Shown here: positions 44,041 through 49,602 of the stretch, piece after piece
Numbering within the stretch: the first letter of the stretch is position 1
How the letters are laid out: every line of letters begins with the position of its first letter
From: Tricharina praecox
Lineage: Eukaryota
Direction of reading: 5' to 3'
DNA: 64,000 bases
NCBI RefSeq assembly: GCF_024521635.1
Contig: NW_026250403.1
Coordinates: 1,116,001 to 1,180,000 of the forward strand
Made by a program: the position numbers and the translations under genes
Notes under the pieces: model-generated
What the model was told of the DNA's origin: nothing
Database searches by the model: none
The model's input: only the letters and a program-made list of their open reading frames with translations

Positions 44041-44645
44041 CTGTAATTGAGTAGGCGACACAGTGTGGACTGGGCACTGCTGCGAGCTGTAGGATAGTTA
44101 TATACAAGCTGCTCACTGCCTGCCATCTTCCCCCATTGTCTATCTCTCATTTCCGACCCCCTATCTCCTCCTATTGCTATCCCTTAATGTTTGTCACCTG
44201 TACGGTATCTCTGTCTCTGCCTTAACATTTTCACCCACCAGGACGCGATGCAGTAGAGAGGACAGACTTGGGAACGGGAGAAGGATTAAGTCATAGCGCT
44301 ATAAACGGTAGTTACTTCTACTTGAAGGACACCAAAATTAATAGTTCGAAGGTCTTGACGGTAATATTGAATATCCACCTCCTTCGTGGGCTCCAATGTT
44401 CTCCAGAGGAGATGCAATCCCCCCAAAATAAAAACCGGATAATGTGACAAAAGGCGGCATTTGATGCTAAGTTCTAGATGGTCCGATTTTGTTGGCACAC
44501 ATTATGGATGCTCTCCGAGAGTAAAGTTGATTACTCTTGAATAGATTGGCTGCCGGTCACTGCCAAGCCCTCGTCACGTGGCTGATCGAGGTTGAGGTCC
44601 AAGCTGAACTGCAGTCCGGGACTCAGCAACAATCACAATTCTCCC

Positions 44646-45445
44646 ATGGCAGACAAGAAAACGAATTCCGCTCCTGGTGGCGACACAGTACGCATCTCTC
44701 TCTCTCTCTCCTCAAAGTCTCCTAATCTTGCCGCTGACACTTCTCACAGGGATTCCGTCGCACATGGGACCGCGACGAATGGGCGTCGAAAGCCAAAGAG
44801 CGTGAAACCAAAGAACGCGCCGAAGGCAAACTGCGCGCTGAAGCCAAAGCCCAAGGCAAGAAGTATTATGCGCCAGCCGCCGACGATGCGGAGATGATCA
44901 GCGCGCGCCGCGGTCGCATCAACTTCGAGGAGAATCTCAATAAAGTACAGCTTGTGCCTGGCGGTGCGGCGGTGGGGAAGAAGGGACGCAGCGCGGGTTT
45001 TTACTGTGAAGTCTGCGACCTTACCTATAAGGACTCGTTGCAATGGGTGGACCATTTGAACTCCAAGCAGCATTTGGTCGCTACGGGAAAGACGGGGGAG
45101 GTTGAGAGGGCGACGCTGGAGGATGTGCTCAAGAGACTTGAGTGGCTGAAGAAGCAGAGGGAACAGAGGGAGAAGGTGGAAGACCTGGATATCAGGAAAA
45201 GGATGGAGGAGAGGGCTATGATTGAGGAGGAGGAGAGGCTGGCGAAGAGGGAGAAGCGGAAGGAGGCAAAGAAACGGAGGAGAGCGGTCGAGATCAAGCT
45301 GGAAGAGGGAGCTGCTGCGCGGGCGAAGGCTGGTGAGGCTGCTGCCGCTGTCTCCGAGGAGGCCGAGATGGATGACGATGCCGCGATAATGGCCAGAATG
45401 ATGGGCTTCAGCGGCGGATTCGGGACGACCAAGAAGAAGAACTAA
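44646..45445 (+). CDS. SNU23: U4/U6.U5 tri-snRNP zinc-finger protein Snu23/ZMAT2
   Basis: Intron 44688..44749. FRRTWDRDE, GFYCEVCDLTYKDSLQWVDHLNSKQH, VERATLEDV, MMGFSGGFGTTKK. Confidence 0.93.
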
Positions 45446-45932
45446 TTTTGCCCGCCGTTCATCGGGTCCTATGGAGTTATGCAGGCGTTTCTGTTGTTTT
45501 CTTCTTCGAGCATGTATAATAGAGGCACGCACCAAGCCACTCAGCATCAGCGCCGTCGTCGTCGTCATCGCCGCATGTCCCCCACCCCCGCCTCCATCGC
45601 TCCATGGTGAATTCTTCACAGTTCTTCACGAACCAAAGAAAAACGTGCGCAGTCTTAGCTACCTCATCCCACATCTCACTCTAGTCCCCATCTGTCGAGC
45701 CAAAATAATATTGTGGTGATCATCCCTGCCACGTCCCAACCAAAGTGCTTGCTGTAACTCTAGTGTCACCAAGTACCGAACAACAACGAACTTGCTCCTC
45801 GTCCGCTCCTCTCCTCCGTGCCATCCAACATCTACATGCTCCCAATACCGCTATAGATTCGGGCGAACTGGCCCTTCATCCGTCAACGACCTGGTCAGGA
45901 AGATCCAAGTTCTTCCATGACTTTAGCTTTTG

Positions 45933-46660
45933 ATGCGGCCTCTGTGAGTAAACCCGAGAAGCCAAGTTCCGCCTCCTCTGCCTGCTTCTGCCTGCCCTTT
46001 CACCCCCGAAACCCCAATACGCCCCCAACCCAACAAAAAACTGCCACTAATCAACCGTCCGACGTCGGGACGAAACGAACAGGTTGTTTGCGATCATAGT
46101 CTTCATTGCCGGTTATATCACAGCTCGCTACGCTGTCATCACGCAGGCGGTAGAACTTGCAAAGTTTGCTTGGGAACACGGAGTTGTGGTTCGTGGATCC
46201 CTTCGCGCGCCCTCATGAGCGTGCCCCCTGGAATAAGAAGACAGGTCGTCGGTCTCATCGGTCTTGTCGCGCACACTCCGCCGCCGCCTTCTCCGCGGGC
46301 AATGACACCTCCGAAACGACGCCGAAACGTTTCAAGATTTCACCAGAGACATCGGCTGACTGGGTGCGGAAAATAAATAGGGCCGGGCAACGAAAGGCTT
46401 CTTGATCTTATCGATATTCTTCTTCCTGTTCTGTATACCTATCGAACGAATCGTCGCCCGCGAGGCAGCCAACGAGGTTCGTTCCGTCCGTCTGCCAGCG
46501 CCTCGTCATCACCCCTTCATCCTACTCCTCCTGCTTCTACACCAGTCCGCTCGATCAGCGCAGACGGCGAAAGCTAACCTATCGGCGCTACTACCCACAG
46601 AACTCTCGAGGCGGCAACATCTCAGCCCGCGAACAGCTACGGAGAAGGGGCAGTTTCTAG
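45933..46660 (+). CDS. Small (90-aa) two-TM membrane protein of unknown function; four exons; not in the ORF track
   Basis: Exons 45933..45943, 46083..46188, 46381..46476 and 46601..46660 total 273 nt. The three introns have GTGAGT/GTTCGT donors, ACTAAT/GCTGAC/GCTAAC branch sites and CAG/TAG acceptors, all in consistent phase. Product: MRPLLFAIIVFIAGYITARYAVITQAVELAKFAWEHGVVGRATKGFLILSIFFFLFCIPIERIVAREAANENSRGGNISAREQLRRRGSF. Confidence 0.8.
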
Positions 46661-46688
46661 TGCGCATACACAAGAGGAGGGATATTCA

Positions 46689-49007
46689 ATGGGGGGGTCC
46701 AAAAATGACGTGTTGATGCGAATATTCTGGCCGCTGGACTTCCCGCGCAACGATCAAGCGGGAATACTAGTTGGCTGGCGGAATTCGGAGACGGATATCT
46801 TTGTGGTTGCGATTCTTAACGGGGTTAATGTGCGATGAAATTCTTCTTTGATTTTTATGGGGGTTTCTTACTTTTCTTTTCTTTTTGGAAGCGTCATCGT
46901 TCTTTGTGTAGTATATGGGAAAGTGCAATTGGCTGACTGAAGACGCTCCGATTTGTGTTGGTGTTGGGTTTACAGAGCACAAGAATAGACAACGAATTAC
47001 GAACGCAATCTCTGTTCCGGAAATCGCGACACTCGGTGGAACGCATCTTTGATGTCTGTGGGCAGTCGGCGCTGCATGTGCTGGGCGAGGTCAATGGCAA
47101 TACTACTCCCGATACCGTGTTCCGTCGGGACCATATCTATGCCTTCACGCACAAGTCGAGTCGCTACCCGCAGATCTTTTGTCCGCCGTCCAGTGGGGTG
47201 ACGTTACAAGTCATTCTGTTCGAAGAGCCAAATCCTTACAAGATGGAATATCACTCGTTGACGCCCATCTCGCTGGCATTGGAAGACAAGGCGGGAAGCA
47301 AGCCGAGCGATGGTGACGACATGGAGGAAATCACGGAGAGCAAGAAGCAAGTTGAGCTCGTGGAGAAGCTGAAGCTACACACTGTTACGAAGCACGCTCC
47401 GACGGAGAAGGAGCGCGGTCTGCCGACTATCATCCATCAGATCAATTGCGCGCACGAAACCAAGGAGCTGCTCAGGATCAATGTGGAACTCTTGAATTCC
47501 CGAAGGCTGCGGAGGGCGCTCTCGGTCAGTGAGCGTGTGGTTGAGTCGGCCACCTCGGCGTGGAGAACTACGCTTCACATGTGTGTGGAGACAGCGAAGT
47601 TCTTATGGCCATTCGTCAAGAATACCCTTGTCGCAATCATCCTGTTCTGGCGCTCGTTGGCGAATTTGATTTTGAAGGTCCTAGAGTGGAGGGCGAAACC
47701 GGATTTTGCGGCGCTGAAGGATATTTCTGCTACAGGTAGATATCACTAGCTATCCGTTCAAGGCACGTGGATGCAGTAGCTAACTTGTGGTCATAGCTCA
47801 ACAGTTTGATATCCGCCTGCAGCAGTTTTGCTATTGGCCGTTACAGTATATCACCGTACGTCGGCGCAAAGATGATTGGGGTGGAGCAACGAATTCTCAT
47901 CCGGATTACATCCGGTTCTACAACAGCCTGTGGCTGGTGGCAAACGATATCATCATCGGTATCGCCTTAGGGTCGTACATCATCGAAAATGCCAATGTCG
48001 TTGCACAGAGTATTGATTACTACCTAAAAGTAAAACTCCCCAGGCCGCGCTGCGTGAGGATGGTGGACGAGTGCTAACTAGTTCTTCAGACATACACCAT
48101 CGAAGGGATGGGCCGCACAATAGAATGGCTCTTAATAGATCCGGGAGGATTGAAGCTGAACGAAGAGCTAGACAAGTTCCTCGGTGATTTCTTCAGATGG
48201 GTTCTCAACTATTGGGCCGAGATCACCGCTTCGATCAGTCCCTACCTCCCCCAAATCATCTACGCCATCGGCATCTCCTCCTTCGCCGGCGCCTCGATGC
48301 CAATTGCCCTCTTCTCCGACCTCCTCTCCATCCTAACCCTCCATATCTACAGCTTCTACATTTCCTCAGCCCGTATATACAATTGGCAACTCAGCATAAT
48401 CTACTCCCTCTTCCACCTCTTCCGCGGCAAAAAAATCAACGTCCTGCGCAAACGCATTGACTCCTGCGACTACGAGCTGGATCAACTCCTGATCGGCACC
48501 ATTCTCTTCACCCTCCTAATCTTCCTCCTCCCCACAGTCTTCGTCTACTACTGCCTCTTCGCATCCGCGCGCATGGCCATAATAATCCTTAAAGCCGGCC
48601 TCGAAACCCTCCTCGCATGTCTAAACCACTTCCCGCTCTTCGCCCTCATGCTCCGCGTCAAAGACTCCAAGCGACTGCCCGGCGGAATAAAATTTGAGCT
48701 CATGGACACTCCCGACGTGTCCAGTCGTTTCCGGCACGACCTGGGAGACACGGCTCCAACAGCTTACATCCGCTTGCGCAGCACGCCACTCCCGCTGGGC
48801 GCCATGTTTAGACAGTACTCGCAGCTCGGGAGTAGACTCCAAGGCCATTACGTCTCGGCCAGAGTCATACTCTGCTTGCTCACCGGGAAGGCCGTCCCGC
48901 CGATTCATAGGAGGAATCTATATTCTATGCAGTATAGTATGTTGCCGACTAAGAGGGCGGGGGTTATGGAGGTGTGGAATAAGTTGACGGGGGGAGGGAG
49001 AGGATGA
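46689..49007 (+). CDS. GPI1: GPI-GlcNAc transferase subunit Gpi1 (PIG-Q)
   Basis: MGGSKNDVLMRIFWP..GILVGWRNS. Introns at about 46830..46975, 47736..47796 and 48030..48089. Motifs: QQFDIRLQQFCYWP, YIRFYNSLWLVANDIIIG, PGGLKLN, LFRGKK.NVLRKRIDSCDYELDQLLIGT. Confidence 0.93.
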
Positions 49008-49602
49008 GAGGGAGGATGCGGCCTGTGGATACTATGTGCTTAATGTTCTTTCTTTTCCTTACTTTATGAACGATGACTACAGACGATGTTTGGCTCGTGG
49101 TGATTTGGACTTCATAGCAGATACTTAATGAGTTGTTCTCCATCATTGAAACGAACCAATAATGCTACCCATCTGGTCCGCCTGATCTCCAATGCCCGCA
49201 GAAAAACCACTCATTTGCCAGCACCTAATAGGTACTCAGACAACCACCCCCGAGAACGTCTGAGGGGACGGACTCGCCGTTTCGAAACGTCTGTAGATAT
49301 TATAGAATTTTTAGAAAGACCCCAGTTTTTTACGGATAGCATGCGCGGGCTACAACTCGGAATTACAGAGTTTTGGTATGCGTATGCTTCCGGAAGCGTC
49401 CTTTTCTGTTATGAAGATAGAAATCATAGCCGTGGATCGGCCTTATTTTTATTTTGGTTCCATCATTGATTGCATGCGACCTATTACTAGGTATGGCAAT
49501 ATGTCGGAGTCGATCATTTCAATGGAAGTGAAGGCCAGCTCTTGATACCACGAGTGATTTGACGTGACGTCAATGTATAACCACAGTTACAAAGTATGCT
49601 TC

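Follow-up and report, generated by a model that had tools for sequence, protein, structure and literature searches.

A conserved small membrane protein encoded directly upstream of GPI1 in Pezizomycotina suggests a candidate bicistronic locus

GPI-anchor synthesis, an antifungal target, is indispensable to the fungal cell wall. In humans, the PYURF-PIGY mRNA is translated by leaky scanning, and no joint role of its two products is known to us. The pair is named as a characterised human bicistron in the accessible part of PMC13303939. Several small membrane proteins belong to the first enzyme of the pathway, the GPI-GlcNAc transferase. According to the available text of 10.1101/2024.02.28.582498, Eri1/PIG-Y (68 aa in yeast, 71 aa in human, 116 aa in Candida) has two predicted transmembrane helices and members that are barely alignable among themselves, and the DPM2 homologue (yeast Yil102c-A) is a further subunit, common to this enzyme and Dol-P-Man synthase. 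The subunit list is still growing as far as the accessible sources describe it, with ARV1 and the DPM2 homologue as recent additions. Homologues of all yeast GPI-pathway proteins except Gpi15 are listed for Colletotrichum in the part of PMC8949851 that was available.

Here we describe a microprotein gene that ends 28 nt before the start of GPI1, as originally predicted, in a 64,000-nt stretch of Tricharina praecox DNA (the whole stretch analysed, hereafter the window). The downstream gene is GPI1 by its Pfam domain PF05024 (E 3.5e-86; E 1.5e-18 for another downstream ORF); it encodes 683 aa in total, with an N-terminus that parallels that of Wilcoxina mikolae Gpi1 (P0274, 88% identical). The coding exons of the microprotein join in frame to 273 nt and 90 codons (Table 1). 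Assembled contigs from public runs X1 and X2 (two studies), letter-identical to the window, served as RNA sources; both runs are labelled as RNA only by guess, but contigs that lack seven GT..AG introns can only come from spliced RNA. The soil metatranscriptomes X3 and X4 gave no contig that aligned here. At the microprotein locus, both runs skip exactly 139, 192 and 124 nt, each bounded by GT..AG. The four-exon, 90-aa ORF proposed from the bare sequence is therefore real, with all three predicted junctions present in contigs of both runs, and a 901-nt contig of a relative codes for the already spliced 89-aa form (P0002). The first intron appears, from sequence comparison, to be specific to Pezizomycetes, and the metagenome loci L001-L004 are without it; family members from Morchella read through its position.

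Table 1. Features of the microprotein-GPI1 locus (positions in the window)
Feature	Position	Strand	Evidence
5' leader of the putative shared transcript	45781..45932	+	X1 contig start 45781 (adaptor letters before), X2 contig start 45846
Microprotein coding exon 1, 11 nt, weak-context ATG (T at -3, C at +4)	45933..45943	+	Joint 45943>46083 in X1 and X2
Intron 1, 139 nt, GTGAGT..CAG, CTAAT branch site	45944..46082	+	Sequence and RNA contigs
Exon 2, hydrophobic helix 1 and amphipathic stretch	46083..46188	+	Sequence and RNA contigs
Intron 2, 192 nt, GTTCGT..TAG, CTGAC branch site, phase 0	46189..46380	+	Position kept in L001-L004
Exon 3, hydrophobic helix 2	46381..46476	+	Sequence and RNA contigs
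Intron 3, 124 nt, GTTCGT..CAG, CTAAC branch site, phase 0	46477..46600	+	Position kept in L001-L004
Exon 4, basic tail; C-terminal motif of the whole family (ends RRRGSF); stop TAG 46658-46660	46601..46660	+	Sequence, family alignment
Spacer between ORFs, 28 nt, without ATG	46661..46688	+	Unbroken cover by X1 contig 2 and X2 contig 7
GPI1 coding exon 1, 47 codons, ATG 46689	46689..46829	+	In-frame joint 46829>46976 in X1; N-terminus parallels P0274
GPI1 intron 1, 146 nt	46830..46975	+	X1 contig joint
Remaining GPI1 exons (46976-47735, 47797-48029, 48090-49007), Gpi1 Pfam domain	46976..49007	+	Pfam, RNA contigs

Both ORFs occur on one assembled transcript contig (X1, X2), in agreement with the shared transcript that had been proposed, contigs being unable to prove a single molecule. 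An unbranched X1 contig (contig 2, 45781-46829) starts in the leader, crosses all four microprotein exons and GPI1 exon 1, and connects to GPI1 exon 2; X2 contig 7 (2720 nt, 45846-49141) covers both ORFs. In another species, a 92-aa family member and a 707-aa GPI1 are each recorded on a single Logan contig, with a length of 2704 nt in both cases. One X1 contig has GPI1 intron 1 spliced out, whereas a second X1 contig and the 2720-nt X2 contig retain it. No other X2 contig reaches across both ORFs, and the isoform represented by the 2720-nt contig cannot yield full-length Gpi1 from 46689. Assembled contigs merge overlapping transcripts, and a bicistron cannot be told by them from two separate mRNAs, of which one would extend its 3' UTR from the microprotein into GPI1 and the other would start inside the microprotein gene. 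Assemblers would then have fused the two, and an internal GPI1 promoter would keep the spacing. The length of many contigs with the spliced small ORF, no more than about 1 kb, fits such overlapping mRNAs, while the unbranched X1 contig and the 2704 nt common to both proteins in the other species argue against them.

The microprotein belongs to a large fungal family. The spliced product of the window matches an HMM of 110 family members with E 1.8e-40 and 123.7 bits (Z=1) and is thus not a chance ORF. One search gave 184 cluster representatives at E<=1e-3 and a profile search 1190 hits, with a typical size of about 92 aa and a range from Pezizomycotina to Lipomyces and Dipodascopsis; the orders of Neurospora crassa and Aspergillus nidulans both have members. 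Across the 110-sequence alignment, mean column identity is 74% and 11 residues are invariant, the last five among them. Four of ten pairwise comparisons, all divergent with unsaturated synonymous sites, gave dN/dS values of 0.10-0.16; five were saturated, and the near-identical pair L002/L003 gave 0.345 from very few changes. Judged by dN/dS, the microprotein is under purifying selection, and the conservation of the peptide on which the original prediction depended is borne out. Relatives are named “hypothetical” or, misleadingly, “PIG-Q” in databases such as UniRef and NCBI, and the gene is not generally hidden as had been claimed, given that many Pezizomycotina genomes carry it as an annotated separate 92-aa protein, often as PIG-Q.

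The two hydrophobic segments and the basic tail ending in RRRGSF that had been read from the sequence were recovered in the hydrophobicity profile, which peaks at about residues 4-18 and 46-60 and then runs into a polar, basic C-terminal stretch. AlphaFold2 (AF2) models a helical hairpin (H2-35/H38-70, pLDDT 89). Taken together, this shows that the roughly 90-aa product is a real and strongly conserved membrane protein, with a predicted two-segment helical hairpin. Its arginine-rich tail would face the cytosol by the positive-inside rule, and the RRRGSF ending presumably resembles both a basophilic-kinase (RRxS) site and an arginine-type ER-retention or C-terminal 14-3-3 signal. The same data bear on the idea, raised at the outset, that the ORF might merely be a regulatory uORF that throttles GPI1 translation through a peptide of irrelevant sequence. 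In favour of this idea, the microprotein ORF precedes GPI1 on one and the same RNA contig. Because of the low dN/dS (0.10-0.16) and the 11 invariant residues, together with the steady length of about 92 aa, the confidently modelled hairpin and the conservation of the family from Pezizomycotina as far as Lipomyces and Dipodascopsis, we consider a mere uORF extremely improbable.

Linkage to GPI1, first noticed in the window alone, extends across all five resolvable loci (the window and metagenome loci L001-L004), where both genes share a strand and 19-63 nt separate the microprotein stop from the GPI1 ATG. Conservation does not extend to the upstream neighbour, as the zinc-finger gene preceding the pair in the window had no match in the four metagenome loci. 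One further locus (L005) is a true homologue whose remaining 380 nt or so hold neither the last exon nor GPI1. Another (L006) was left out of the locus counts as a chance match, with 9.8 bits to the family HMM and without GPI1. Locus tags of microprotein and GPI1 are adjacent or near in Zasmidium, Cladosporium and Hymenoscyphus.

Linkage is also visible in 38 of the 120 GPI1 database models listed, in which the microprotein is fused to the GPI1 N-terminus. At least in some isoforms or species, the small ORF might accordingly extend Gpi1 at its N-terminus, if the 3' end of exon 2 or 3 were spliced to an acceptor immediately ahead of the GPI1 start; both exons end in phase 0 and the spacer of the window contains an in-frame AG. 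No such joint is present in X1 or X2, where contigs keep the TAG and the spacer, and the fusion points vary from model to model and leave out the invariant tail, a pattern that artefacts of gene prediction would produce. Over 100 stand-alone 92-aa entries terminate in the conserved tail, and an extension of this kind is very unlikely in our view. The label “PIG-Q” on the small protein is a misnomer that most likely spread from fused gene models.

Start codons are sparse in the first cistron. The spliced RNA of the window has no ATG in any frame in the 301 nt between the starts at 45933 and 46689, where dinucleotide shuffles expect 3.2 (P 0.017), and the other loci have 1-2 as compared to 3.1-5.8 expected (one each in L001-L003, two in L004, one of them in the CDS). 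An out-of-frame ATG 8 nt upstream of the GPI1 ATG is present in L001-L004 and would be met first by scanning ribosomes. Internal methionine accounts for 3 of 9557 residues in the family (0.03%, vs 2.45% in GPI1) and is missing from 102 of 105 members, which are relatives and not independent. Methionine ever occurs in only two of 25 variable hydrophobic columns, while GPI1 of a similar range of taxa has it in 62 of 116. With the amino-acid sequence kept fixed, the scarcity of out-of-frame ATGs is not significant (synonymous-shuffle P 0.15-0.78). The AUG signal is essentially one of methionine avoidance. In all five loci, the microprotein AUG is flanked by a pyrimidine at -3 and C at +4, while that of GPI1 has a purine at -3 in four of five and G at +4 in four of five (the window combines T at -3 with G at +4). 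Hence, a weak upstream AUG followed by a better downstream one, the arrangement expected for leaky scanning, is found across the loci. Speaking against leaky scanning, the leader contains two ATGs in spliced RNA, of which 45836 opens a 6-codon uORF and 45917 a 114-codon ORF in an alternative frame that ends at 46716. Two overlapping mRNAs would leave the near-absence of methionine and ATG as well as the uniformly weak upstream AUG unexplained, and we regard them as rather unlikely.

On balance, we favour a two-gene transcription unit in which microprotein and GPI1 share one mRNA. Its promoter would lie within roughly 270 nt after the 3' end of the upstream gene (about 45511), and the transcript would start near 45781-45846, with the 90-codon ORF first and GPI1 28 nt later. 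That GPI1 is read from this same mRNA by ribosomes scanning past the weak AUG of the microprotein is moderately probable. We propose that such leaky scanning would cause selection against AUG between the two starts, which might have kept these roughly 300 nt almost AUG-free and, in consequence, the protein almost free of methionine. What the co-produced hairpin does is a more tentative matter. Its linkage to GPI1 hints at a putative role in the GPI-GlcNAc transferase of the ER, be it as a small subunit, in assembly or in regulation, which we put forward as a possibility; its mode of action may be like that of Eri1/PIG-Y or DPM2, without detectable homology to them.

Database comparisons gave the family no known name. 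Profiles of PIG-Y (Pfam, presumably PF15159; E<=10), DPM2 (which we take to be PF07297) and PIG-P (PIG-P/Gpi19) matched none of the 110 members, in keeping with the earlier impression that a PIG-Y or DPM2 signature is lacking, and the microprotein therefore represents a separate family. PF05024 (Gpi1/PIG-Q) likewise matched none of the 110 members at E<=10, P0002 included, and a Pfam search with the exon ORFs and P0002 gave no family. Weak Pfam matches scattered among the 110 members (best YqzM, four members, E 0.025) were taken as chance. The best hit of a PDB profile search, a CDP-diacylglycerol transferase (E 0.0048; all others E>0.3), was attributed to transmembrane composition. Foldseek returned no PDB match for the AF2 hairpin, and a search for a solved structure of a Gpi1 relative found none. 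In the ESM Atlas, only own-family clusters named ‘pig-Q’ (one with 159 members of the same family as the microprotein) and chance rows were recovered. Our literature search found no paper on the microprotein or on a GPI1 bicistron in fungi. Co-folding of Wilcoxina Gpi1 (P0274) with P0002 gave ipSAE 0.00 in two runs, which, made without alignments or controls, speak neither for nor against binding. With 90-92 aa and two helices, the family falls within the size and topology of Eri1/PIG-Y (about 70-116 aa), features common to many unrelated proteins, and because Eri1/PIG-Y members are themselves barely alignable, sequence settles neither homology nor analogy.

The microprotein could also be real and co-transcribed but play no part in GPI synthesis, with a linkage kept only by the shared mRNA. 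This would agree with the lack of any sequence, fold or family tie to a GPI-GlcNAc transferase subunit in these searches and with the existence of bicistronic pairs of, to our knowledge, unrelated products such as PYURF-PIGY. On the other hand, the pairing persists in all sampled Pezizomycotina classes while flanking genes change, and with its small size and two membrane helices the product resembles Eri1/PIG-Y subunits as described in the accessible text. A GPI-unrelated role is thus quite conceivable, and we hold it with the same reserve as a role next to Gpi1. The most far-reaching version, in which the hairpin would be an unrecognised subunit or regulator of the transferase throughout Pezizomycotina, acting in the place that Eri1/PIG-Y has in yeasts and animals and made in fixed proportion to Gpi1 via the leaky-scanned bicistron, is speculative and unlikely as a whole.

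If true, a fungus-specific and highly conserved small partner of Gpi1 would offer a new handle on the regulation of the GPI-GlcNAc transferase. With 19-63 nt between the ORFs in filamentous ascomycetes and an AUG-depleted first cistron, the pair would rank among the clearest natural bicistronic mRNAs in Ascomycota and, whatever the function, would give fungal leaky scanning a ready test system. Orthology tables are corrupted by the wrong fusion in about one third (38/120) of the GPI1 models listed and by the widespread naming of the small protein as PIG-Q.

Compared to known systems, the entries of about 92 aa named ‘pig-Q’ or ‘Phosphatidylinositol glycan, class Q’ are the same family as the microprotein and are without the Gpi1 domain. 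DPM2/Yil102c-A is likewise a small membrane protein but differs in that the microprotein does not match the DPM2 model. Eri1/PIG-Y shares the size class, the two predicted helices and a genomic link with the first step of GPI synthesis, whereas a tail such as RRRGSF is not described for it in the accessible text. Like human PYURF-PIGY, the locus combines a small conserved upstream ORF with a subunit of the GPI-GlcNAc transferase, here on one transcript as judged by contigs only. Unlike in the human pair, however, the downstream cistron is the large subunit Gpi1/PIG-Q and not a small one, the upstream product is a predicted membrane hairpin of a different, unnamed family, and the arrangement is fungal and spliced.

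The four-exon gene directly upstream of GPI1 is almost certainly real. Contigs of two public sequencing runs from two studies, X1 and X2 (guessed to be RNA), were compared with positions 44500-49400 of the window and are letter-identical to it. Their joints (45943>46083; 46187>46380, cut +1; 46474>46599, cut +2) are exactly the three introns originally predicted for the 90-aa ORF, whose branch sites lie 20-40 nt ahead of the acceptors. The GPI1 introns 47736-47796 and 48030-48089 are also spliced in X1 and X2 contigs, and 46830-46975 in X1 besides. Since seven GT..AG introns are absent from the contigs, these must derive from spliced RNA. No contigs of X3 and X4, two soil metatranscriptomes, matched this stretch. 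Other elements of the original prediction held as well: the TAG precedes the GPI1 ATG by 28 nt, a spacer covered by X1 contig 2, and the product has two hydrophobic stretches, peaking around residues 4-18 and 46-60, and a C-terminal part that is polar and basic. The first coding exon comprises 11 nt only, which may explain why near relatives such as Pyronema and Wilcoxina have no separate microprotein model among the matches listed; the N-terminus of the Pyronema GPI1 model (P0275) is also aberrant.

Coordinates of microprotein and GPI1 features in the window
Feature	Position	Strand	Remarks
Microprotein coding exons	45933-45943, 46083-46188, 46381-46476, 46601-46660	+	joined 273 nt, 90 codons + TAG
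Microprotein stop codon TAG	46658-46660	+	end of joined four-exon ORF
Microprotein intron 1	45944-46082	+	139 nt, GTGAGT..CAG, CTAAT branch site
Microprotein intron 2	46189-46380	+	192 nt, GTTCGT..TAG, CTGAC branch site
Microprotein intron 3	46477-46600	+	124 nt, GTTCGT..CAG, CTAAC branch site
GPI1 coding exons	46689-46829, 46976-47735, 47797-48029, 48090-49007	+	683 aa vs 677 aa in Wilcoxina
ATG (spliced RNA from 45781)	45836	+	opens 6-codon uORF
ATG (spliced RNA from 45781)	45917	+	opens 114-codon alternative-frame ORF, end 46716
ATG (spliced RNA from 45781)	45933	+	microprotein start
ATG (spliced RNA from 45781)	46689	+	GPI1 start; next ATG after 45933

Pfam Gpi1 was matched by ORFs 47784-48077 (E 1.5e-18) and 48078-49007 (E 3.5e-86). 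Over 309 aa, the fungal GPI1 of the window shares 88% identity with that of Wilcoxina mikolae and 84% with that of Pyronema domesticum, which points to a Pyronemataceae-like Pezizomycete as its probable source. The GPI1 ATG starts a 47-codon exon with an in-frame joint to 46976, and the N-terminus so modelled runs parallel to the Wilcoxina protein. Upstream, the stretch 44738-45511 belongs to a gene for a JAZ-type C2H2 zinc-finger protein (last ORF 44738-45445), presumably Snu23-like and with a weakly SNRNP27-like C-terminus. Transcript contigs of this gene stop at 45510/45511 in both runs, so that about 270 nt remain for a promoter of the microprotein-GPI1 unit.

The two ORFs are likely to share transcripts. 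X1 contig 2 (614 nt), preceded by adaptor letters, runs unbranched from 45781 to 46829, spanning all four microprotein exons, the stop and the spacer and reaching the end of GPI1 exon 1, where the assembly forks into an intron-retaining (46800-47005) and a spliced contig (46976-48972). X2 contig 7 (2720 nt; 45846-49141) passes through both ORFs; a contig across two genes, in either run, is distinct from a demonstrated single transcript molecule. This sole locus-spanning X2 contig keeps GPI1 intron 1 (146 nt), and X1 has contigs with and without it. All three introns of the microprotein gene and the remaining ones of GPI1 are seen in spliced form only. Retention of GPI1 intron 1 leads to a stop at 46836-46838 and could therefore be a regulated step.

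The microprotein is very probably conserved and tied to GPI1. A search with the exon-2 ORF yielded P0002, an 89-aa relative on a 901-nt contig that is collinear with the spliced product; as it stems from a prokaryote-style gene call, its source must be intron-free, cDNA-like sequence. An exhaustive HMMER search with P0002 returned 184 cluster representatives at E<=1e-3 (31 at E<=1e-10), many being genomic calls running on into an intron, and a profile search matched 1190 of 8000 scored candidates, the best 120 mostly exactly 92 aa long. Source names place the family in Leotiomycetes, Dothideomycetes, Eurotiomycetes, Sordariomycetes and Pezizomycetes and, beyond Pezizomycotina, in Lipomyces starkeyi and Dipodascopsis tothii. 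The spliced window product matches the family HMM at E 1.8e-40. Across 110 aligned members, column identity averages 74% and 11 positions are invariant (F11, G14, Y15, E67, S78, A79 and the final five R, R, G, S, F). Among ten pairs from five DNA loci, dN/dS was 0.10-0.16 in the four that are divergent with unsaturated synonymous sites, 0.345 in one near-identical pair (L002/L003) with very few changes, and saturated in five. The anticipated conservation is thus confirmed, whereas the gene is not "hidden" in general: relatives are recorded as ~92-aa proteins, widely mislabelled. NCBI calls most hypothetical, UniRef and some records use "Phosphatidylinositol glycan, class Q" or "gpi1", and a 159-member ESM Atlas cluster is automatically named "pig-Q". 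The annotated P0036 (Fulvia fulva, 61 aa) has exon 2 joined straight to the tail exon and lacks the second hydrophobic helix, through either exon skipping in an isoform or a faulty gene model.

A metagenome scan yielded six loci. With a score of 9.8 bits against the family HMM and no GPI1, L006 is a chance match and was left out of locus counts; L005 is a true homologue on a 1140-nt contig without the last exon and without GPI1 in the remaining ~380 nt. In L001-L004, three independent loci given the near-identity of L002 and L003, a 92-aa, two-intron model precedes GPI1 in the same orientation, with introns at the positions of window introns 2 and 3. It is separated from the first GPI1 ATG by 63, 19, 19 and 20 nt, respectively, compared with 28 nt in the window. 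Among the 120 best-matching long GPI1 proteins in the database, 38 (within P0276-P0388) also carry the microprotein N-terminal motif fused ahead of GPI1, which proves adjacency in those species and, with the spacers, bears out the proposed linkage. Junctions are variable and usually skip the conserved tail; the fusions look like gene-predictor artefacts and, together with the 92-aa proteins named PIG-Q, like propagating annotation errors. The pair has consecutive locus tags in Zasmidium cellare and Cladosporium halotolerans; in Hymenoscyphus albidus the tags differ by two. The window's zinc-finger gene had no match in L001-L004, and the upstream fusion partner in some Sordariomycete models carries another domain (PF05254); thus, the pair persists while its neighbours do not.

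A leaky-scanning bicistron is slightly favoured as the main route to Gpi1. No ATG occurs in the 298 nt between the two window starts (3.2 expected by dinucleotide shuffles, P 0.017), and L001-L004 have 1, 1, 1 and 2 (3.1-5.8 expected, P 0.04-0.14). Out-of-frame ATGs are not significantly avoided given the protein sequence (synonymous-shuffle P 0.15-0.78), so that the depletion reflects Met avoidance. Internal Met makes up 3 of 9557 residues in 105 full-length members (102 have none); overall Met is 0.03% against 2.45% in GPI1 proteins from a comparable spread of filamentous ascomycetes, and 2/25 variable hydrophobic columns ever hold Met against 62/116. In all five loci, position -3 of the microprotein AUG is a pyrimidine and position +4 a C; for the GPI1 AUG, position -3 is a purine in four. 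All this is consistent with leaky scanning. However, an ATG 8 nt ahead of the GPI1 start in L001-L004, two extra leader ATGs in the window and frequent retention of GPI1 intron 1 count against its simple form. The -8 ATG is out of frame (L001 3701-3711, L002 5407-5417, L003 788-798, L004 5388-5398) and absent from the window; the ORF of 3-5 codons that it starts in L001 and L004 has a stop overlapping the GPI1 start or shortly after it. Beginning 16 nt upstream of the microprotein start, the 45917 ORF extends 28 nt beyond the GPI1 ATG and would compete with both cistrons; with no equivalent closely upstream in L001-L004, it is probably not conserved.

The family is functionally uncharacterised, and our literature search found no paper on the microprotein or on a GPI1 bicistron in fungi. 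AF2 with the family alignment predicts a helical hairpin (H2-35, H38-70, short H79-85; mean pLDDT 89), for which Foldseek found nothing similar in the PDB. Pfam gave no domain, and none of 110 members matched PIG-Y, DPM2, PIG-P or Gpi1, in agreement with the earlier impression that a PIG-Y or DPM2 signature is missing. We take the tail to resemble a basophilic-kinase site and an arginine-type ER-retention or C-terminal 14-3-3 motif. According to PMC8949851, all yeast GPI proteins except Gpi15 have homologues in Colletotrichum, which might indicate a separate Eri1 there. Published accounts of GPI-GlcNAc transferase describe Eri1/PIG-Y as its least conserved subunit (orthologues only 14-22% identical) and name a DPM2 homologue as a further one. 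Because the pairing with GPI1 is deeply conserved and the enzyme employs such small two-helix subunits, the microprotein might, tentatively, serve GPI-GlcNAc transferase.
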